This document shows positions 8 through 61,766 of a stretch of 64,000 nt of DNA, piece after piece; position 1 is the first letter of the stretch, and the number at the start of each line of letters is the position of its first letter. The stretch spans positions 12,221-76,220 of the forward strand of contig CAAGKK010000016.1 of the NCBI GenBank assembly GCA_900770385.1, written 5' to 3'. Origin of the DNA: Clostridia bacterium. Lineage in GTDB: Bacteria; Bacillota; Clostridia; TANB77; CAG-508. The notes beneath the pieces are model-generated. The model had not been told where the DNA came from and searched no databases. It worked only from the letters and a program-made list of their open reading frames with translations. A program made the translations under genes and the position numbers.

Positions 8-607
8 ATGGATAAAAAGAAAATGGAAAATTTACGAGAAAGCAATATACAAGATTATATGCAAGCTTGTAAAGCACAAGGAAAAACATGCACAAGGGCA
101 CAGGCAGAAAATTTAGTAGATTCTGCAATCAATGATGCGGCAAGAATAAAAGGTATAAAATCTGGGGCAAATTTACCAGGTGCAGAATTAAAACCAAAAA
201 CACAAACAACACAACAAGAGAAACCTCAATCACAACCACAGCAAGAAACTAATGAGCAGAGAGAAAGAAGAGGTAGAATGACTAGAATAGATGAAGAAAG
301 AAGGAACCAAAGAAAATCTGTGGCACAAAGAAGAAATGAAAGTCAAAGAAAAAGAGAAGAAGAAAAAAGGAAACTTGCAAATGATGAGCATCAAGAAAAT
401 AAGCAGGGTGATAAAGGAGTAAAAGATTCGCAAGGAAGAACAAGAGAGGTAAAAAGAATAAACACAAATCAACCAAGGAGTGGACAAACAAGAACAAATA
501 CAAATAAATCACCAATGGGTGGAACAACAAGAACAAATACAAGTAAATCACCAATAGGTGGACCAACAAATACAAATGTAAATCAAAATAATGGTCCAAT
601 AGTATAA
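8..607 (+). CDS. hypothetical K/R/Q/T-rich low-complexity protein
   Basis: ATG ORF, first of four tightly packed same-strand ORFs (gaps 12-15 nt). Composition is strongly biased. A 39-nt tandem duplication at 488-565 encodes TRTNT(N/S)KSP(M/I)GG. No motif I recognise. Confidence 0.45.
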   Translation: MDKKKMENLRESNIQDYMQACKAQGKTCTRAQAENLVDSAINDAARIKGIKSGANLPGAELKPKTQTTQQEKPQSQPQQETNEQRERRGRMTRIDEERRNQRKSVAQRRNESQRKREEEKRKLANDEHQENKQGDKGVKDSQGRTREVKRINTNQPRSGQTRTNTNKSPMGGTTRTNTSKSPIGGPTNTNVNQNNGPIV

Positions 608-5370: not shown

Positions 5371-5667
5371 TTATTCATTATTAACTATTAATTAGATTAT
5401 ATGTATGGGCGGACACAGGGTTCCGCCCATAGCTACGAAGAAATAGCTTATAAATATTCAGCCTACATTTTGAGTACTTTCTTTCCAAATTAGACCCTCC
5501 AAGACAAGGAGTAATCCGTATGCCTCAAAGGGCTGTCGGGCCCTAATTTTCCAAAAAAGTCTCAAAATAGTCTGAATTCTATAAATTATTAATCATTCAT
5601 TATTCACTATTAATTAAATCATATGTAGGGTCGGACGCCTCTGTCCGCCCGTGGCTACGAAGAAATA
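5371..5667 (+). repeat. composite intergenic repeat: A-unit (AT arm + GC hairpin) / 120-nt core / A-unit
   Basis: Hairpins at 5403-5433 (gtatgggcgga-cacagggt-tccgcccatagc) and 5625-5651 (gtagggtcggac-gcctct-gtccgcccg). Each is preceded by tattcattatt(a/c)actattaatta and followed by gctacgaagaaata. The same architecture recurs at 8 other loci in the window. Confidence 0.9.
5457..5576 (+). repeat. 120-nt conserved core with terminal inverted repeats (candidate MITE or structured RNA)
   Basis: TTCAGCCTACATTTTGAG ... CTCAAAATAGTCTGAA termini. Nearly identical copies at 13472-13591(-), 36506-36626 and 61562-61681. Internal GC hairpins GGGCTGTCGGGCCC and CCTCC-N7-GGAG. Confidence 0.85.
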
Positions 5668-5790
5668 CCAAAAATAAAAATATAATAAAGAAAACAAAAA
5701 AGATATTTTATGAAATTACTAAGAACCAAACAGCAATTTAATACTCATAAAAAGCAATAACAAACATATAATTAATATAGGTGATTTTTT

Positions 5791-7179: not shown

Positions 7180-7254
7180 GGCGATATAGCCAAGTGGTAA
7201 GGCACGAGTCTGCAAAACTCCGATTCCCCGGTTCGAATCCGGGTGTCGCCTCCA
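7180..7254 (+). tRNA. tRNA-Cys (anticodon GCA), CCA encoded
   Basis: Acceptor GGCGATA/TGTCGCC, anticodon loop CTGCAAA, T-arm CCCGG-TTCGAAT-CCGGG, discriminator U73. Confidence 0.9.
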
Positions 7255-7295
7255 AATGTGTAAATGCTTTGCATTTACAATTAATAATTAAAAAT
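7247..7295 (+). repeat. left copy of 49-nt direct repeat (starts with the last 8 nt of tRNA-Cys)
   Basis: cgcctccaaatgtgtaaatgctttgcatttacaattaataattaaaaat matches 7782-7830 at 44/49 positions. Confidence 0.85.
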
Positions 7296-7380
7296 GAAGA
7301 GTGAAAAGTGAATAATATGTAAAGGCAAAAGGCATTTACACAATTATTCATTTTTAATTATTAAATATTAACTATTAATT
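7259..7380. repeat. palindromic AT-arm/hairpin element related to the A-units
   Basis: Hairpins tgtaaatgc-ttt-gcatttaca (7259-7279) and tgtaaaggc-aaaa-ggcatttaca (7318-7340). Inverted arms ttaataattaaaaatgaa (7281-7298) / ttcatttttaattattaa (7347-7364). The arms share the aatgaataat motif with the other repeats. Confidence 0.55.
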
Positions 7381-7428
7381 TTATTATTTTAATTCTAAAT
7401 ATTATTTATATCTGAAAGGTTTATATCT

Positions 7429-7779
7429 ATGAAAAATAATCCATTATTAGATCAATCCTTAAGTTTTGCATCTGAAATTATTAAACTGCAGAAAAAACTT
7501 ATAAAAGAGAAAAAAGAAACAATCATTTCCAAACAAATAATTAGAAGTGCTACAAGCATAGGAGCAAATATAAATGAAGCAAATTATGCAAATAGTAAGC
7601 CAGATTTTATATCTAAAATGCATATAGCACTAAAAGAATGTGCTGAAACAGAATATTGGATTAGGCTATTAGAAAAAGCAGAATATATTTCTAAGGAATA
7701 TGCTATAGATGTATTAGCAAAATGTTTATCAATTAAGAAAATGTTGATAGCTTCTTTAAATACAATTAAATCAAAGTGA
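7429..7779 (+). CDS. four-helix bundle protein (23S rRNA intervening-sequence protein family)
   Basis: 116 aa. Family signature RSATSIGANINEA ... DFISKMHIALKECAETEYWIRLL. Confidence 0.85.
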   Translation: MKNNPLLDQSLSFASEIIKLQKKLIKEKKETIISKQIIRSATSIGANINEANYANSKPDFISKMHIALKECAETEYWIRLLEKAEYISKEYAIDVLAKCLSIKKMLIASLNTIKSK

Positions 7780-7781
7780 AA

Positions 7782-7830
7782 CGCCTCCAAATGTGTAAAT
7801 GCAAAGCATTTAAAATTAACAATTAAAAAT
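7782..7830 (+). repeat. right copy of 49-nt direct repeat
   Basis: cgcctccaaatgtgtaaatgcaaagcatttaaaattaacaattaaaaat. The hairpin loop is AAA instead of TTT. Confidence 0.85.
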
Positions 7831-13404: not shown

Positions 13405-13716
13405 TTGTCCGTGCGAAAAAACACAATGAATAATGAAGAATTAATAATTAAAAATGAATAATTTATAGAAATTCAGACTATTTTGAGACTTTTTTGAAAA
13501 ATTAGGGCCCGACAGCCCTTTGAGGCATACGGATTACCCATTGTCTTGGAGGGTCTAATTTGGAGAGAAAGTGCTCAAAATGTAGGCTGAAAAATTTATA
13601 TAGCTATTTCTTTGTAGTAGCTACGGGCGGACACGGGGTTCCGCCCCTACATATATATTATTTATTCTTCATTATTCACTATTAATTAAATTACCTGTAG
13701 GGGCGGACGACTCTAC
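13405..13716 (-). repeat. composite intergenic repeat, inverted orientation, plus an extra truncated + oriented unit
   Basis: Reverse-complement AT arms (aatgaataatgaagaattaataattaaaaatgaataat). Core at 13472-13591. Hairpin ctacgggcggacacggggttccgcccctac (13621-13650). A + oriented unit tattcactattaattaaattacctgtaggggcggacgactctac follows. Confidence 0.85.
13472..13591 (-). repeat. 120-nt core, inverted copy
   Basis: The reverse complement matches 5457-5576 except for a few substitutions (ctttctCtcc; acaaTGGGtaat). Confidence 0.85.
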
Positions 13717-23259: not shown

Positions 23260-23294
23260 ATAATTTATTGCTACGAAAAAATTCTTTATAAATA

Positions 23295-23328
23295 TTCAGC
23301 CTACATTTTGAGCACTTTCTTTCCAAAT
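23295..23328 (+). repeat. 5' fragment of the 120-nt core
   Basis: ttcagcctacattttgagcactttctttccaaat is identical to the start of the other cores, then diverges. Confidence 0.8.
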
Positions 23329-23344
23329 AATTTCATTGTAATTA

Positions 23345-23434
23345 GTATTTGGAATTTCGTATTTGGCGGTATATAGAAAATTCTTCGAAGTATTTTAACT
23401 ATACTCAAAATACCAAACACAAAACACCAAATAC
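23345..23434. repeat. second palindromic repeat family (GTATTTGG... / ...CCAAATAC arms)
   Basis: Left arm gtatttggaatttcgtatttgg, right arm ccaaacacaaaacaccaaatac. A similar element lies at 40829-40924 and a half copy at 36405-36460. Confidence 0.6.
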
Positions 23435-23545
23435 ATTTAAATTATTAATTATTAATTATTCATCATTCACTATTAATTAAATCATATGTATGGGCGGACG
23501 CATCTGTCCGCCCGTTGCCCAATTTGTAACAAAATAAAAAAAGTC

Positions 23546-36404: not shown

Positions 36405-36712
36405 ATAATTTCATTTTCCAAACATCAAAACACAAAATAACTAATACATAAATTATTAAATATTAACTATTCATTTTTCAATATTAATTAAATACTATAA
36501 AAATATTCAGCCTACATTTTGAGTACTTTCTTTCCAAATTAGACCCTCCAAGACAAGGGGGTAATCCGTATGCCTCAAAGGGCTGTCGGGCCCTAATTTT
36601 CCAAAAAAGTCTCAAAATAGTCTGAACTCTATAAATTATTAATTGTTAATTATTCATCATTCATTATTAATTAAATTATATGTAGGGGCGGAACCCTGTG
36701 TCCGCCCGAATA
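36405..36712 (+). repeat. composite repeat (second-family half copy + AT arm without hairpin + core + A-unit)
   Basis: The core is at 36506-36626. The right hairpin is gtaggggcggaaccctgtgtccgcccg (36682-36708). The left arm runs straight into the core with no GC hairpin. Confidence 0.85.
36506..36626 (+). repeat. 120-nt core copy (121 nt)
   Basis: Matches 5457-5576 except acaaGGGGGtaat. Confidence 0.85.
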
Positions 36713-40828: not shown

Positions 40829-40924
40829 GCATTTGGAATTTAATATTTAGAATTTTGTAATATAAAAAAGATTTTAGAACTAATTTTAATATAGCCAAAC
40901 ACCAATTTCTAAACACCAAATACC
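40829..40924. repeat. second palindromic repeat family copy
   Basis: gcatttggaatttaatatttagaatttt ... ccaaacaccaatttctaaacaccaaatacc are imperfect inverted arms around an AT-rich centre. Confidence 0.55.
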
Positions 40925-40944
40925 AGTATAAGGAGAGAATTTAA

Positions 40945-44282: not shown

Positions 44283-44294
44283 TATATGCTCCTT

Positions 44295-44555
44295 TTATTT
44301 TAAAAAATTGTTAGTTAAGTTTTCTACTAACTCAAATCTGTGCTTTTGTCCTGTAATATTATCAGGTCTTTTAGGTATTTCTTCTAAAAACATTTTTTCA
44401 GGACGAACCTATATATTTTTTGAATCATCTCTTTTATATAAAGGTTTATATACAACCATTCTTTCTTGATTTTCCGAATCATAAGCAATATTTTCTACAA
44501 AATAATAATTTCCTTTAAAATGTCTATAAACTTTTCCAATTTCTACAGTATTCAT
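44295..44555 (-). pseudogene. DUF1653-family gene interrupted by an in-frame TAG (codon 49)
   Basis: Hand translation: MNTVEIGKVYRHFKGNYYFVENIAYDSENQERMVVYKPLYKRDDSKNI*VRPEKMFLEEIPKRPDNITGQKHRFELVENLTNNFLK. RBS GGAGG + 6 nt. The TAG is at 44409-44411. Confidence 0.65.
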
Positions 44556-44706
44556 ACAAACCTCCTATAGCAATATTATGTATTGTATTTTATCATTTTT
44601 GCATAAAAAAAGCAATAGGAGACCCAAATACAAAAGTTTTATTTGAATAAATAATGCAAGAATAGCATATAATAATACAAATTTACAATTAAGGAGAAAT
44701 TTGTAT

Positions 44707-49320: not shown

Positions 49321-51141
49321 TTATTCAACTGTAACTGATTTTGCCAAATTTCTTGGTTTATCAACATCTAAATTTCTTTTTTTAGCAATGTAGTAAGAAA
49401 GCAATTGTAGAGGAATAACAGAAAGTATGGGACTTAAATATTTATCTATTTCTGGAATTGATATTATATAATCAAAATCTTTATTTAACTTTTGATTAGT
49501 AATAATAATTGTTTTTGCACCTCTAGATATAACCTCTTGAACATTACTTATAGATTTTTCTAAAAGTTTTTTGTCTGTAATTATACTTATTACAGGAAAA
49601 CCATTTTCTATTAAAGCAATAGGTCCATGCTTTAATTCACCACCTGCATAAGCTTCTGAATGTATATAAGATATTTCTTTTAATTTTAAAGAGCCTTCCA
49701 TTGCAACAGGGTAATCAATTCCTCTTCCAATAAAGAATAAATCTTTTACATTATAAATATCTTCTGCAAGGTTTTTTATGTTTTGACAATTTTTTAAGGT
49801 TTCTTCAACTTTATTTGGCAATAAAAGTATTTGTTTCTTTAAATCATCTATAATAATATCATCTGCACTTTTCAATATTTGAGCAATATATAATGCAATT
49901 ATGTTCAATAAAACAACTTGAGCTGTATAAGCTTTTGTAGAAGCAACAGCAATTTCTGGACCTGCATGTGTGTATATATATAAATCTGCTTCTCTAGTAA
50001 TAGAGCTACCTATTACATTTGATAAAGCAAGTGTTGTTGCACCTTTTTCTTTTGCCAATTTTAATGCCTGGATAGTATCAGCTGTTTCACCTGATTGACT
50101 AATAAAAATAGCAAGAGTATTTTTATTTACTAAAGGATTTCTGTATCTAAATTCTGAAGCCATGTCTACTTCTACAGGTATTTTACATAGATTCTCGAAA
50201 ATAGGTTTTACAGCTAACCCTGCATGCATTGCAGTTCCACAAGCAACAATAAATATTTTATTTATATTAGATAAAAAGTCTTTAGATAAAGTTATATTAT
50301 CTAATTCTATTTGTTCTTTGTTTAATTTAAATCCTATAGTTTCTCTTATAGAAACCACTTGTTCATTTATTTCTTTTAGCATAAAATCTTCATAACCATT
50401 TTTCTCGATAGAAGAAGAATCCCAAGAAATTTTTTCTATTTTTTTAGTTATTGCATTTAAATCTTTATCATAAAAATTTAATTTATTTGAAAAAACTTCA
50501 ACAATTTCATTATCTTCTAAAAGATAAAAGTTTTTAGTATAACTTAAGATTGCTGGGATATCAGAAGCAATATAATTACTATCTTCAGATGTTCCAATTA
50601 CTAAAGGACTATCTTTTTTTGCTACAACAATTCTATCTGGATAATCTTCACATAAGACTTCTATTGCATAACTTCCTTCTAAATCCTTGCAAGTAAGGCT
50701 AATAGATTTTAGAAGGTCATTTCCAGAAGTATAATAGTAGCTAATTAAGTTTGGTATAACTTCTGTATCAGTTTCAGAAATAAATTTATAACCATTATCC
50801 ATCAAAAATTTTTTTATATCACTATAATTTTCAATAATACCATTATGAACTACACTAAATTTGTGTGTACTATCAAGATGAGGATGTGAATTTATTTGGC
50901 TTGGCTTACCGTGAGTTGCCCATCGAGTATGAGCAATACCAATATTAGATGTATAATTTTTATCCTCAAGTAAATTTACTAAATTTTTTACTCTTCCTTT
51001 GTCTTTTGTAACTATAATCTTTGAATTTTCTATTGTAGAAATTCCAGCAGAATCATAGCCTCTGTATTCTAGTCTTGTTAATCCGTCTAATAATATAGGT
51101 ACAGCTTTTTGCGTTCCTATATATCCTACTATTCCGCACAT
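49321..51141 (-). CDS. glmS: glutamine--fructose-6-phosphate aminotransferase
   Basis: MCGIVGYIG N-terminal nucleophile. Two SIS domains. C-terminus KSVTVE. 606 aa. Confidence 0.92.
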   Translation of the reverse strand: MCGIVGYIGTQKAVPILLDGLTRLEYRGYDSAGISTIENSKIIVTKDKGRVKNLVNLLEDKNYTSNIGIAHTRWATHGKPSQINSHPHLDSTHKFSVVHNGIIENYSDIKKFLMDNGYKFISETDTEVIPNLISYYYTSGNDLLKSISLTCKDLEGSYAIEVLCEDYPDRIVVAKKDSPLVIGTSEDSNYIASDIPAILSYTKNFYLLEDNEIVEVFSNKLNFYDKDLNAITKKIEKISWDSSSIEKNGYEDFMLKEINEQVVSIRETIGFKLNKEQIELDNITLSKDFLSNINKIFIVACGTAMHAGLAVKPIFENLCKIPVEVDMASEFRYRNPLVNKNTLAIFISQSGETADTIQALKLAKEKGATTLALSNVIGSSITREADLYIYTHAGPEIAVASTKAYTAQVVLLNIIALYIAQILKSADDIIIDDLKKQILLLPNKVEETLKNCQNIKNLAEDIYNVKDLFFIGRGIDYPVAMEGSLKLKEISYIHSEAYAGGELKHGPIALIENGFPVISIITDKKLLEKSISNVQEVISRGAKTIIITNQKLNKDFDYIISIPEIDKYLSPILSVIPLQLLSYYIAKKRNLDVDKPRNLAKSVTVE

Positions 51142-51171: not shown

Positions 51172-51316
51172 AGGCGTACTACACAATAATAATTTTGTTT
51201 TAGTATTGCTACTAGTTTTTGTATATTATTTAATGACAGTAGTAATGCCATAAAGCTATCCGCCGAATATTTCGATAAGCTTTATCCTCGTTAGGCATAT
51301 TGCCCCTGGCGCTAAA
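51172..51316 (-). ncRNA. glmS ribozyme (GlcN6P-dependent self-cleaving riboswitch)
   Basis: The minus strand reads A/GCGCCAGGGGCAAUAUGCCUAACGAGGAUAAAGCUUAUCGAAAUAUUCGGCGGAUAGCUUUAUGG... This matches the conserved AGCGCCAG...GACGAGG...UCGAA...CGGCGGAU core. It lies directly upstream of glmS. The 3' boundary is approximate. Confidence 0.85.
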
Positions 51317-51449
51317 ATAAAACTCCTTTCTAAAAATTTGCCTTTGATTTATTATATTATAAGAAAAACAAATTTGGCAACATTATATATTTATTTTTGT
51401 TAAATTATATGTTATAAATAAATTATAAAATATTCAGGGGAGAAAACAA

Positions 51450-53645
51450 ATGAAGAAAAATAAGATATTATTAATATTATTAGCTTTTATAATTATGATA
51501 TTGTTATCATCAAAAGTAGAAGCAAATAGCGGCACATATTCTATAGATGAACTAAATATGGATGTAATACTTCAAAAAGATGGTAGCTTAAAAATAAATG
51601 AAAGGCTTACATATAAATTTAATGGATCTTTTAATGGTATTTATATTACAATACCATATGGGATAAATGATAATAAATATGATAAAATAAGAGCACAAAC
51701 ATCATTAATAAATGATAGCTTTTATAATGCTGTATCTTATAAAATAGATAGTGTATATGTAGGAAACAATAAGTATCAACAAGCATATTCTGCAGTAAAT
51801 GGAGAAAGAGGAGTATACACAATAGAAAATGATTATTCAAAGAAAATAGATAAAATAAAAGTGTATTCACCTACATCAAAGGCTATAAAGACCTTTACTA
51901 TATCTTATACACTGAATAATCTTGCAGTAAAACATAATGATATAGGGGAGATATATTATAACTTCATTGGTGGAGATTGGGATAAATCAATAAAGAAGGT
52001 TAATATTAACATTAACTTACCAAATAATTCTAGTAGAGACAACTTATACGCATTTGCACATGGACCTAGTAATGGAGTTGTTAAAATAGAAGATAAAAAT
52101 AATATAAACTTATATGCAGAAAATGTTGGAAAGAAAAATTATATTGCAGGAAGAATATTATTTGACAAGTCTAACATACCAAACAGTAATAAAGTTAGTA
52201 ATAAAACAGCTTTAGATTCTATAATGCAAGAAGAAAAAGCAATTTATAAGGAAGTTAATAAAAAATACGAGTTTAATAATAAATTATTAATATTTGCAAT
52301 AGTATTGCTAGTGTACTGGCTAATATTAATGCTTATATTTGAAAGGGATAGAAAATATACAGTTGGAAGCAATGATGAAGAAATGTTCGAAAAATATAAT
52401 CCATTAATTGCAGGATGTTTACAAGGAAATAGAAATGTATTACCTAGAGATATTATTGCAGTAATATTAGACTTAATTAATAAGAAATACTTAAATTTAC
52501 GAATAGAACCACATGTAGAAAAAGAAGATTCAATATTAGAAAAAGTTAAATATGGAAAAGAAAAAAGAAAGTATGATTATTATATATCTATAAACAAAGA
52601 ATCAGACTATAAACCTGACGAAATAGAAACATACATACTAGATTGGGTAATGATAAAAACAAATTTAAACTTAATTGATAGGCTAGAAGAAATACCAAAA
52701 ACAGAAATTGCATCACAAAAATTTGAAAAGTTAGATGAAAAAGCAATGGAAGAATTAAATCAATTAGGAGCCAATAAAGCAACGGTACCATGGATTATTA
52801 AAGCACTAAATAATGTAATATTTGTGATTGGAATAGTTTTAAGTTTAATTAATATAAAAAATGCAATATCAATTGTAAATGAAGGTTTTTTACCAATTAT
52901 AATATATTTTTTAATGATAGCAGCACCAGCACTTTTATTTTTAATGATTATACCAATAAAAATATATTACTATACTAAAAAATCTGTAAATAAACTGGTA
53001 CAAAAAATTAATGGCCAAAAAATAACAATTACTACAATAAGTATAATTTTAATATTTACTTTTATAATGGTTATTACAATGATTTTTAGTAAAAATCAAA
53101 TAGCATTAGTAACAGAATTACTTATAGGAGTCTCAACACTAATAATTCTAACAGATAATTTAATGACGAAAAATGATCCAATAATAACAGAAGATTATAG
53201 TAGATTAAATGCTTTGAAATATAAAATTGAAAACTATTCTATGATGCAAGATAAAGATGTAAATCAAGTTGTTTTGTGGGAAAAATATTTAGCTTATGCT
53301 GTATCTTTTGGAATTGCAAATAAAATTTCAAAGTATATTAAACCTATGCTTGAAAATGAAAATATTAGTTCCATGATTAATGACAATATAATGTCACAAT
53401 ATATTTTTAATGATTATGATTATTTTATAATGAATGTAAAATCAATATCAGAATTAAGAACAAATGATATGATTAGTAATATTAATGATGCAATGGGAAG
53501 TTTCTCAGGAGGAGACGGTGGACGGTGGCAGTTTCTCTGGCGGTGGAGGCTTTTCAGGCGGTGGTGGTGCCGGCCGGCGGTGGTGGCGCCTTCTAAAAGA
53601 AATGGCATTTGTCATTTCTTTTTTTTATTAAATATGATACAATAA
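51450..53645 (+). CDS. DUF2207-family membrane protein; C-terminal Gly-rich tail out of frame
   Basis: Signal peptide. N-terminal block YSIDELNMDVILQKDGSLKINERLTYKFNGSFNGIY is typical of DUF2207. Multiple TM helices. The last 40 codons of the ORF (RWQFLWRWRLFRRWW...) look like a GGN repeat read in the wrong frame. Confidence 0.7.
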   Translation: MKKNKILLILLAFIIMILLSSKVEANSGTYSIDELNMDVILQKDGSLKINERLTYKFNGSFNGIYITIPYGINDNKYDKIRAQTSLINDSFYNAVSYKIDSVYVGNNKYQQAYSAVNGERGVYTIENDYSKKIDKIKVYSPTSKAIKTFTISYTLNNLAVKHNDIGEIYYNFIGGDWDKSIKKVNININLPNNSSRDNLYAFAHGPSNGVVKIEDKNNINLYAENVGKKNYIAGRILFDKSNIPNSNKVSNKTALDSIMQEEKAIYKEVNKKYEFNNKLLIFAIVLLVYWLILMLIFERDRKYTVGSNDEEMFEKYNPLIAGCLQGNRNVLPRDIIAVILDLINKKYLNLRIEPHVEKEDSILEKVKYGKEKRKYDYYISINKESDYKPDEIETYILDWVMIKTNLNLIDRLEEIPKTEIASQKFEKLDEKAMEELNQLGANKATVPWIIKALNNVIFVIGIVLSLINIKNAISIVNEGFLPIIIYFLMIAAPALLFLMIIPIKIYYYTKKSVNKLVQKINGQKITITTISIILIFTFIMVITMIFSKNQIALVTELLIGVSTLIILTDNLMTKNDPIITEDYSRLNALKYKIENYSMMQDKDVNQVVLWEKYLAYAVSFGIANKISKYIKPMLENENISSMINDNIMSQYIFNDYDYFIMNVKSISELRTNDMISNINDAMGSFSGGDGGRWQFLWRWRLFRRWWCRPAVVAPSKRNGICHFFFLLNMIQ

Positions 53646-60696: not shown

Positions 60697-61512
60697 ATGA
60701 ATTCAAAATTTAAAATCTTTATATACATTATTGTTGCTATATTTTTAATTTTAGTTAGTATAAAAATTGCAAATAACAAAAGCAACAAATTAACAGTGCA
60801 AACTAGCAGTTCAGCTGCATTTTCAAATACTAAAATTGGGTGGGGAATAAAGAGAAACAAGAATCATAGTCAACCAGATTTAGGAAAAAAGAACAAAGAA
60901 TTAATAGAAAAATATAAAGGTTATGCAATGGGAAACAGTAATGAAAAAAGAGTATATTTAACATTTGATTTAGGTTATGAGGCAGGTTATACAAATAAAA
61001 TATTAGATATATTAAAGGAAAATAATGTAAATGCTACATTTTTTATTACAGCACACTATGTAAATACTGCTTCTGATATAGTACAAAGAATGATAGATGA
61101 AGGGCATATTATAGGAAATCATACCGTAAATCACAAAAGTATGCCAGATTTGAGCTCAGAAGAGCTAAAAAAAGAAATAATGGATTTACATACAGCAGTT
61201 TATAATAAGTTTAATTATGAAATGACATATATGAGACCTCCCAAAGGAGAATATAGTGAAAGAACCTTATGCGAAGTTACAAATTTAGGATATACACCTG
61301 TAATGTGGAGCTTTGCATATGCAGATTGGGATGAAAAAAAACAACCATCAAATAATGAAGGAAAAAAGAAAATTATTGAAAATATGCATAATGGAGAAAT
61401 TATGCTATTACATGCTACTTCAAAAACAAATATGGAGATATTGGATGAGGTTATTAAACAAATAAAAAATATGGGGTATGAATTTAAATCTATTAATGAA
61501 TTTATAATGTAG
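60697..61512 (+). CDS. pdaA: delta-lactam-biosynthetic de-N-acetylase (polysaccharide deacetylase)
   Basis: WGIKRNKNHSQPD...VYLTFDLGYEAGYT...GHIIGNHTVNH closely parallels B. subtilis PdaA. N-terminal anchor. Confidence 0.85.
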   Translation: MNSKFKIFIYIIVAIFLILVSIKIANNKSNKLTVQTSSSAAFSNTKIGWGIKRNKNHSQPDLGKKNKELIEKYKGYAMGNSNEKRVYLTFDLGYEAGYTNKILDILKENNVNATFFITAHYVNTASDIVQRMIDEGHIIGNHTVNHKSMPDLSSEELKKEIMDLHTAVYNKFNYEMTYMRPPKGEYSERTLCEVTNLGYTPVMWSFAYADWDEKKQPSNNEGKKKIIENMHNGEIMLLHATSKTNMEILDEVIKQIKNMGYEFKSINEFIM

Positions 61513-61766
61513 GGGAGGAACCCTGTGTCCGCCCGTGCTACGAAGGGAAACTTTAACAATATTCAGCCTACATTTTGAGCACTTTCTTTCCAAATTAGAC
61601 CCTCCAAGACAAGGAGTAATCCGTATGCCTCAAAGGGCTGTCGGGCCCTAATTTTTCAAAAAAGTCTCAAAATAGTCTGAACTCTATAAATTATAAATTA
61701 TTAACTATTCATTATTCACTATTAATTAAATCATATGTAGGGGCGGATGCCTCTGTCCGCCCGAAA
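61506..61766 (+). repeat. composite repeat (A-unit / core / A-unit)
   Basis: Hairpins gtaggggaggaaccctgtgtccgcccg (61509-61535, containing the pdaA TAG stop) and gtaggggcggatgcctctgtccgcccg (61737-61763, ending 1 nt before the yqfC RBS). Confidence 0.9.
61562..61681 (+). repeat. 120-nt core copy
   Basis: Nearly identical to 5457-5576. Confidence 0.85.

Follow-up and report, generated by a model that had tools for sequence, protein, structure and literature searches.

A probable non-autonomous foldback DNA repeat with a conserved tip, embedded in a strain-variable REP-like mosaic of a sporulating clostridial bacterium

The window analyzed here, a 64-kb stretch of DNA with a GC content of 27%, carries genes for spore photoproduct lyase, YabP, YqfD, Spo0A and GatCAB along with other housekeeping genes, and we therefore assign it to the chromosome of a sporulating clostridial bacterium. 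An earlier note on this DNA had reported four full copies of an element of about 120 nt and an additional 34-nt 5' piece; our data bear out this count at a level far above chance (Table 1). The 18-mer TTCAGCCTACATTTTGAG, taken from the 5' end of the core, occurs exactly five times in the window (at 5457+, 13591-, 23295+, 36506+, and 61562+), compared to 0.08 occurrences expected from shuffles; five occurrences were reached in none of 100 shuffled sequences. A covariance model of the family described below found only the four full copies to be significant in the window (80-92 bits; E of about 1e-16 to 1e-19). Every core copy in the window is intergenic, and the copies are near-identical (mean identity of 96.5%), with only about four differing sites among the four full cores. 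The number of cores in the entire genome was extrapolated from the four copies per 64 kb of the window and from at least three copies on a 204-kb contig.

Table 1. Positions of the core copies and of the repeat modules associated with them in the window
Feature	Position	Strand	Remarks
Core copy 1	5457..5576	+	120-nt foldback with long imperfect stem and conserved asymmetric tip; 91.9 bits
Core copy 2	13472..13591	-	Inverted orientation; 80.3 bits; same copy carried by L043 and L061
Core copy 3	36506..36626	+	121 nt; GGGGG variant; 86.8 bits
Core copy 4	61562..61681	+	92.3 bits; within the 228-nt polymorphic cassette
Upstream REP hairpin of copy 1	5403-5429	+	With tail/linker TAGCTACGAAGAAATAGCTTATAAATA at 5430-5456; repeat families D3, D5, D12
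Downstream block of copy 1	5577..5668	+	AT-rich 5577-5624, REP hairpin 5625-5651, REP tail 5652-5668; families D1, D3
REP and tail preceding copy 2	13592..13650	-	Hairpin 13650-13624, tail 13623-13592
Chimeric element	23268..23514	+	Truncated REP tail, core nt 1-34 (23295-23328), 'Z' hairpin body, AT module and REP (23488-23514)
Two core-less REP units, gatC-gatA spacer	27241..27348	+	One unit only in other strains
AT-rich module and REP after copy 3	36627..36708	+	REP hairpin 36682-36708
Resident GTAG-headed REP-like hairpin, site A	61509..61535	+	Overlaps the TAG stop codon of the deacetylase gene
Polymorphic cassette, site A	61536..61763	+	REP tail (TGCTACGAAG..), core, AT-rich module, GTAG-REP hairpin

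The 34-nt piece, which had been read as a 5' fragment of the element, turned out to be something else, namely the 5' arm of the core joined to another type of hairpin body, that of the 'Z' family (GTATTTGG..CCAAATAC). The truncated REP tail of this chimeric element is located directly 3' of an intrinsic terminator. A fusion of the same 5' arm with a Z body recurs in another species, an uncultured Clostridium sp. (L002); apart from this one variant element, a scan of representative genomes with the 18-mer yielded chance matches only, so that either the source species or its element is missing from them.

The ends of the core had been described as terminal inverted repeats. The pairings TTCAG/CTGAA and TTTTGAG/CTCAAAA do exist, but they are the base of one long hairpin, and the second, internal inverted pair noted before (AAATTAG/CTAATTT) is present as well and predicted to lie in the same long hairpin. 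For the plus strand of the core, the predicted fold has a free energy of -32.4 kcal/mol (z of -3.9 compared to shuffles), and for the minus strand -43.6 kcal/mol (z of -5.9); in the subfamily present in the window, G-U pairs give the minus strand the better fold. Within the core, the previously proposed CTCC/GGAG hairpin was found, and the variable site indeed retains its potential for pairing, either as U-A or as U-G. A second GC hairpin read from the same segment (GGGC-TGTCGG-GCCC) is not conserved by the relatives of the element; the conserved local hairpin of the tip is instead GCCT-CAAA-GGGC.

Consistent with the earlier statement that the core harbors no ORF longer than 8 codons, we detected no long ORF in it. 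In the window copies, an SD-like AAGGAG can be read from the sequence, followed after 8 nt by an ATG and an ORF of 8 codons in the tip. Since this frame is not kept in the type-2 tips defined below, in which it is shifted and conservation is at the nucleotide level, we regard the ORF as non-coding and rejected the tip as a small-peptide gene. Domain V of group II introns was likewise considered and rejected: the CCGUAUGC..UGUCGG segment resembles it, but the required pairing was found to be missing upon inspection. Inspection also gave no convincing match to a CsrA site, a sigma-70 promoter in the tip, or motifs of the dif, parS or chi type.

The core is not a free-standing element. It is part of a mosaic of about 228 nt that is composed of a REP tail, the core itself, an AT-rich module and a GTAG-headed REP-like hairpin. 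Each core is preceded by the tail (T/C)(A/G)GCTACGAAGAAATAGC-TTATAAAT and followed by the AT-rich module TATAAATTATTAAT..TTCATTATTCACTATTAATTAAATCATAT and then by a REP hairpin reading GTAGGGGCGGA-N7-8-TCCGCCCG. Hairpins of the form (T)GTAGGGGCGGA-N7-8-TCCGCCC(G) are found at least 12 times in the 64 kb, mostly on the plus strand, and their position is always between genes or overlapping stop codons. The REP tail GTAG-CTACGAAGAAATA.C is found repeatedly in the company of REPs, as are the AT modules, and the tail is part of the REP unit, since it follows REPs even in places that lack a core. In the set of about 27 distinct loci, the cassette always has a REP foot as its right end. Its left end comprises a full REP plus tail in about 19 of these loci and a variably truncated tail in about 8; the cassettes with a truncated tail are located several times directly 3' of an intrinsic terminator.

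REPs associated with RAYTs possess a GTAG head joined to a GC palindrome (PMC2817692, Table 1 therein), and the REP hairpins of the window share this format. The resemblance to the REP/BIME/REPIN systems and their RAYTs (TnpA_REP, a Y1 HUH enzyme) of E. coli, Pseudomonas and Stenotrophomonas (SMAG) extends further. The hairpins flanking the core are short, GC-rich, GTAG-headed palindromes of high copy number that occupy extragenic sites, both intergenic and within operons, and they are clustered into mosaics with conserved linkers and a variable number of units. These systems differ from the one described here in several respects: the host is a sporulating low-GC Firmicute, the REPs in the window cassettes are arranged directly and do not alternate as in the BIMEs of E. 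coli, and a RAYT gene has so far not been found in the window or the related loci.

For a comparison between near-identical strains, we used contigs encoding an identical deacetylase protein together with metagenome contigs sharing 97-100% identity with the window. Strains of 97-99.9% identity can have or lack the mosaic at orthologous sites; both cassettes and single REPs have been gained or lost among them, and at least six orthologous sites are polymorphic; these data bear out the earlier suggestion that a dispersed repeat has recently spread. At site A, the location of core copy 4, three states were observed: no REP, a REP only, and a REP plus cassette. The site without REP is represented by L037, which reads ..ATAATGTAG directly followed by GAGCTGATG.., while L005, L009, L010, L011, L012, and L014 carry a 30-nt REP exactly after GTAG, and the window, L006, L007, L008, and L013 contain the REP together with the 228-nt cassette. 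The resident REP of the window lies directly 3' of the GTAG that is already present in the REP-less L037. The cassette is inserted exactly after the 3' foot of this resident REP (..GTCCGCCCG) and ends in ..GTCCGCCCG, immediately followed by AAAAGGAGC. The junctions at site A are GTAG/REP and CCGCCCG/cassette..CCGCCCG/flank, with no duplication. Site B (DUF3048 gene / era) shows the same arrangement, its cassette abutting the 3' foot of a resident REP exactly and terminating in a second REP foot. Site B and site C (recO / SRP RNA), both of which are located downstream of the window end, are independently filled or empty.

Differences between strains were also found at the other core copies. Copy 1 is missing at the orthologous site in L043, and the boundaries of this indel fall in AT modules, with a 9-nt direct repeat, TAAATTATT. 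In L019, a short AT stretch and a REP stand in place of the whole block of about 264 nt containing copy 3, and an extra core copy is present at about 40.8 kb of the window, where the window itself has a different hairpin element; at both of these places, whole intergenic blocks have been exchanged between strains. The gatC-gatA spacer contains one or two REP units, depending on the strain. The units that are gained or lost are blocks of about 81-290 nt, bounded either by REPs or by AT modules. A target-site duplication of fixed length was not found at any of the empty/filled pairs compared; the repeats shared at their junctions are variable and measure 9-22 nt. Repeats of this kind create strain-level markers.

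These data bear directly on the proposal, made in the earlier note, that the core is a candidate MITE. A classical MITE would be an internally deleted IS whose terminal inverted repeats are bound by a DDE transposase and which, in this case, would duplicate a TATAAAT-like target. The size of about 120 nt, the terminal inverted repeats, the AT-rich targets and the near-identity of the copies are all features expected of such an element, and TATAAAT-like boxes do adjoin most copies on both sides, as had been observed. However, these boxes lie 1 to 3 nt away from the core ends and are often unlike each other (e.g., TAACAAT versus TATAAAT), and no empty site differs from its filled counterpart by the 120-nt core alone. 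In relatives that share the same interior, the presumptive terminal repeats are completely different in sequence and only their complementarity is kept, which is the reverse of the usual MITE pattern. One tip-less hairpin (L100) can be interpreted as an empty target site that bears a T6A6 duplication, but it stands alone against about 110 tip-bearing copies; with the same numbers in mind, we rejected insertion of the tip into pre-existing hairpins as the main mode of spread. An autonomous IS with the same termini was found neither in the window nor in about 0.95 Mb of related loci, nor in the collections of plasmids, phages and viral contigs searched, and a related transposase gene was not found in the 0.95 Mb. 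With a cassette of about 228 nt as the unit, a free stem sequence, no fixed target duplication and no autonomous partner detected in the DNA covered, it is highly improbable that the core is a classical MITE.

The strain differences could alternatively be produced with no dedicated enzyme at all. The repeats would then spread and be lost by homologous, slipped or homology-facilitated illegitimate recombination between REP and AT modules, perhaps including the exchange of whole intergenic alleles between strains, and the arms would stay complementary through template-switching during replication (quasipalindrome correction). The junctions always fall inside shared repeats, either of 9-12 nt (AT module or REP arm) or of 10-22 nt (REP), and variants specific to a strain, e.g., GCAGGCGCC in L009, occur in both the left and the right REP of a cassette. 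The exchange of whole intergenic blocks and the variable left ends of the cassettes also speak for such a process. The difference between L037 and L005, a precise step of 30 nt immediately behind GTAG that involves no more than 1 nt of microhomology, is difficult to reconcile with it, and recombination on its own leaves unexplained both the seeding of the cassette into at least 27 unrelated intergenic loci and the conservation of the tip sequence across species. As the sole source of the observed pattern, we consider recombination conceivable but rather doubtful.

To place the core in a wider context, metagenomes were scanned with a 22-mer from its centre, which yielded 96 stretches, and a covariance model search of 0.58 Mb recovered about 110 copies, some of them with tips in which the 22-mer is missing. 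Because the related loci had been chosen by the 22-mer, the conservation of this particular stretch is partly a matter of construction, an effect that is mitigated in part by the divergent tips found by the model. The window core is a local, recently amplified subfamily of a large family in low-GC clostridia-like bacteria. Its roughly 110 relatives, which stem from other low-GC metagenomic bacteria, have a common plan: a stem of 30-50 bp carries an asymmetric tip of about 50 nt (..CCTCC..GCCTCAAAGGGCTGTCG..), in which GCCTCAAAGGGCTGTCG is near-invariant. In most of the stretches recovered with the 22-mer, the same centre is surrounded by completely different arms, and the two arms of each copy are mutually complementary. 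The tips can be grouped into type 1 (CTCCCTCCAGGTCAAGGGGTAATCCGTATGCCTCAAAGGGCTGTCGGGCAG), type 1b (..CCGTTGCCTTGGGAGGGCTGTCG..), and type 2 (CTCCTCCAAGCCTCCGAAGACTCCATGGGCCTCAAAGGGCTGTCGTTCACC). They possess one to three CCTCC motifs and are bordered by A6/T6 runs on either side. CTAC, which is GTAG on the other strand, is present at one foot in 67 of 102 copies, and nesting of one hairpin within another occurs in the wider family.

The complementarity of the arms was analyzed in two alignments. The first of these showed double-sided changes in 15 of the 19 stem pairs, with 227 double-change cells compared to 51 in shuffles, a value that none of 500 shuffles matched. In the model alignment of 110 copies, 18 of the 19 stem pairs had undergone double-sided change and 97% of the cells were paired; the 386 double-change cells, compared to 79 in shuffles, were again reached in none of 500. 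Pairing dropped to 49-58% when the stem alignment was slid as a control. The changes in the stem lead from one Watson-Crick pair to another, and one-sided or G-U states are almost absent. Since the arms are near-perfect Watson-Crick complements that lack G-U intermediates, the complementarity of the stem looks as if it were held at the DNA level, and selection on an RNA helix appears to be its less likely source. No double-sided covariation was found in the helices of the tip in the 110-copy model alignment: the GCCU/GGGC helix never varies, helix P2 (CUCC/GGRG) exhibits one-sided changes only, to U-A or U-G, and the CCG/CGG helix is poorly paired (77%). The tip is conserved as a sequence, which suggests that it might be read base by base by a protein or by a partner nucleic acid. 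This pattern of conservation is inverted with respect to that of the usual small mobile repeats, as the centre is fixed across species while the arms drift and yet stay paired. It is also of practical relevance, as strong "covariation" can arise from the maintenance of a palindrome at the DNA level and be mistaken for RNA structure.

A structured RNA under structural selection had been the second proposal of the earlier note. A functional RNA residing on a repeat might be transcribed and then released through cutting of the long perfect stem (e.g., by RNase III), which would free a tip sRNA of about 55 nt whose CCUCC motifs could pair with Shine-Dalgarno sequences; in a variant of this idea, the GC-rich tip between an A-run and a T-run would serve as a bidirectional terminator or insulator. 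The conservation of the tip sequence across elements with unrelated stems, its one to three CCTCC motifs and the A6/T6 flanks in the wider family are all compatible with such a function. As to structure, both strands fold far better than shuffles, the minus strand of the window subfamily gains through its G-U pairs, and P2 keeps its pairing in a form (U-A/U-G) that is workable only in plus-strand RNA; however, covariation is confined to the stem, whose changes almost never pass via G-U, unlike those of typical RNA helices. Evidence for a preferred strand conflicts. Window-type copies are mostly co-oriented with genes (15:3), several of them being the same locus in different strains, but the wider family has no bias (19 copies in the direction of the genes, 23 against it), does not avoid divergent promoter regions (9 copies between divergent and 7 between convergent genes), and shows no clear asymmetry between the strands in its wobble mismatches (87 versus 57). 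A terminator-like GGGC..GCCC followed by a T-run was called in copy 4; a convincing promoter or terminator was not found at the element, and promoter-like matches are no more frequent than expected by chance. Although an RNA role of the element or its tip is possible as judged from the sequence, these data do not favor structural selection on an RNA, and we hold an explanation of the element by such a molecule to be unlikely.

The Rfam check that had been recommended for the core produced nothing at the gathering threshold and nothing better than E=3, so that the core matches no Rfam family, a further point against a structured RNA; for the relatives, spurious sub-threshold matches to miRNA precursors were the only result. 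BLAST searches of plasmids and phages returned no match to the element, and scans of viral contigs returned either nothing or chance matches in high-GC contigs only. A full-text literature search for sequence strings of the tip returned no papers, and the core does not resemble Clop-1 or Clot-1, two stem-loop families of clostridia (PMC2267715), in sequence. The family is apparently undescribed. Its fixed tip with a free stem, the REP-cassette context in a Firmicute and the three-state site appear to be new.

By kind, the element sits with the REP/BIME/REPIN and MITE-like small mobile sequences. Like a REPIN, it forms a long hairpin with a spacer between two arms that co-vary, in this case very strongly; yet its arms are not copies of the REP of the genome, and the spacer of about 50 nt is its most conserved part, whereas it is the least conserved part in REPINs. 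Correia elements (CREE/NEMIS) of Neisseria, ERIC, RUP, BOX and bcr1 of B. cereus are likewise intergenic long hairpins of 100-160 nt that are polymorphic between strains. They differ in having conserved terminal inverted repeats and defined duplications (TA for Correia, TTTAT for bcr1), while the elements described here have a free stem, a fixed centre and no fixed duplication. Correia-like and MITE repeats can carry promoter, terminator or RNase III functions. Integron attC sites and the ends of IS200/IS605 elements (PATEs) are comparable in that structure is conserved while sequence varies, and insertion occurs beside a short motif with no duplication. Such sites are recognized as folded single strands. 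The attC sites have a conserved hairpin base and a variable centre, the opposite of the core family. No integrase or TnpA/TnpB gene was present near the core copies among the ORFs scanned.

Taken together, we consider it probable that the core is a non-autonomous foldback (palindromic) DNA repeat of REPIN/BIME-like character, which is embedded in a REP mosaic and would be moved in trans by a putative enzyme. Movement would proceed through single-stranded hairpin DNA and would be catalyzed in trans by a HUH/Y1 (RAYT or IS200/IS605-like) enzyme cutting at REP feet, so that any segment between two direct REPs could be lifted and pasted beside another REP. The precise GTAG/REP and REP-foot/cassette junctions fit the logic of HUH/Y1 single-strand transposases (IS200/IS605, RAYT); the single REP 3' of a pre-existing GTAG is what the logic of IS200/IS605 predicts. 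Further gains and losses may result from homologous or slipped recombination between REP and AT modules. The complementarity of the arms might be kept by hairpin-templated correction at the DNA level, for which template switching at quasipalindromes is a known process, or by the need to fold during transfer. Our confidence in the core as a DNA repeat is moderate, and that in the assignment of a candidate HUH/Y1 enzyme is low, since no gene for the latter was found in the DNA covered, several indels resemble recombination products and the left ends of the cassettes are variable. Variable left ends and non-uniform indel boundaries are not predicted for a precise cut-and-paste enzyme; such boundaries fit recombination, or else copying that proceeds with a fixed 3' end.

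Group 1 RAYTs have been reported in Clostridia (PMC5581495). In our search for a partner enzyme, no transposase, including those of the Y1/RAYT type, was found among the 30 window ORFs scanned. A tblastn search for Y1, RAYT or IS200 proteins in about 0.95 Mb of related loci was also negative, although this is a weak negative. A RAYT gene flanked by REPs was not found in the DNA sampled from the window and the related loci, and clustering of ORFs across about 800 kb for recurrent neighbors of the element gave housekeeping genes only.

A more far-reaching proposal is that the family constitutes a new type of self-propagating hairpin element with the tip as its functional module, or that the tip is a widespread clostridial small RNA residing on mobile hairpins; we judge this to be distinctly improbable. 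In a self-propagating element, the tip might serve some putative machinery as a site of recognition or priming, either in ssDNA or in RNA, and at each round of copying the second arm might be made anew from the first by fold-back (snap-back) synthesis. Snap-back synthesis would jointly explain the perfect but drifting arms, the fixed 3' and variable 5' ends of the cassettes and the nesting of hairpins within hairpins. Should the tip turn out to be a functional RNA, or else a recognition site of a new type, a new class of elements would thereby be defined.

The biology of REPs, BIMEs and REPINs has been worked out almost entirely in Proteobacteria, and here GTAG-headed REPs are found to change in a sporulating gut Clostridium. 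With a REP that directly follows a pre-existing GTAG, the three-state site provides a natural setting in which Y1-type mobilization of single strands can be studied in Firmicutes. Such repeats are also of practical concern, as they break metagenomic assemblies.

Several of the contigs included in this analysis terminate inside these repeats.

The locus of the fourth full copy of the core, the ~120-nt foldback repeat, is polymorphic and was found in three states (window 61509-61535 compared with the near-identical strains L037 and L005): L037 lacks the REP hairpin, L005 carries the REP alone, and the window carries the REP together with the ~228-nt core cassette. The REP hairpin at this site is 30 nt long and lies exactly 3' of a GTAG in which the final sense codon (ATG) of a deacetylase gene meets its stop codon (TAG). 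This position fits an IS200/RAYT-type target logic. Strain-dependent variation was also found in the spacers of the gatCAB operon, which hold one or two REP units and AT modules of differing length. In bacteria that possess the other stem families, REPs with a GTAG head occur as well; their type is related (GTAGGGGCGAAC....GTTCGTCC), and they include a tandem array with a period of ~70 nt.

A second hairpin repeat family, termed Z, follows the pattern ..GTATTTGG..GTATTTGG....CCAAACAC..CCAAATAC... At the intergenic site that holds a Z hairpin in the window (40830-40925), the near-identical strain L019 carries the core cassette. The element at position 23295 is a chimera, with the 5' arm of the core joined to a Z body; uncultured Clostridium sp. 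UMGS1781 (L002), a different species, has the same chimera.

Some elements of the wider family, which has a common ~50-nt tip on unrelated stems, are nested, with one entire hairpin element located at the apex of another hairpin that encloses it. The outer hairpin is of the same kind as the inner one and covaries, and the inner element is flanked by similar direct repeats of ~12 nt (TTTAGTRNSTAC). The AT-rich module of the window (e.g., 5580-5624), TTCATTATTCACTATTAATTAA, resembles the flanks (TTCATTATTCCTTATTCATTAAT) of Clot-1, a published stem-loop family of C. tetani (PMC2267715 supplement), and may represent a wider clostridial AT-rich repeat motif.

Features of the window and of related loci
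Feature	Position	Strand	Remarks
23S-rRNA-intervening-sequence-type protein gene	7429-7779		PF05635
REP units	27224-27348, 28880-28923		spacers of gatCAB operon
Related-type GTAG-headed REPs	L094 about 1-400; also L052, L050, L086
Nested hairpin elements	L023, L050, L030, L085, L016, L029
Z family hairpin	40830-40925
Z family hairpin	23329-23425
Z family hairpin	L002 1-145
glmS ribozyme/riboswitch	51175-51324	(-)	79 bits
glmS gene	49321-51141		ribozyme/riboswitch upstream
Surface protein, 1701 aa	8244-13349		Cna_B, thioester, DUF11 domains
Tandem coding repeats, 3 x 39 nt	472-588		separate from surface protein

Near-identical strains differ at further loci. The PF05635 gene lies directly downstream of tRNA-Gly and tRNA-Cys between 34-nt direct repeats (7254-7287 and 7789-7822), and L043 carries at this site a different insert of 138 nt with the tRNA 3' end duplicated; the locus (7254-7822) looks like a small island targeted to tRNA. 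A 262-nt segment upstream of serS (44294-44557) is cleanly absent from L019; read by eye, its minus strand appears to contain a small ORF (MNTVEIGKVYRHFKGNYYF..), and the Rfam search yielded no T-box ahead of serS. Between glmS and uvrC, a DUF2207 membrane-protein gene (51450-53645) is present in the window, L006, L008, L009 and L010 and missing from L005 and L007, a presence/absence difference of 2.2 kb. The ribozyme/riboswitch preceding glmS is ordinary, and the 1701-aa surface protein contains internal repeats that are long.
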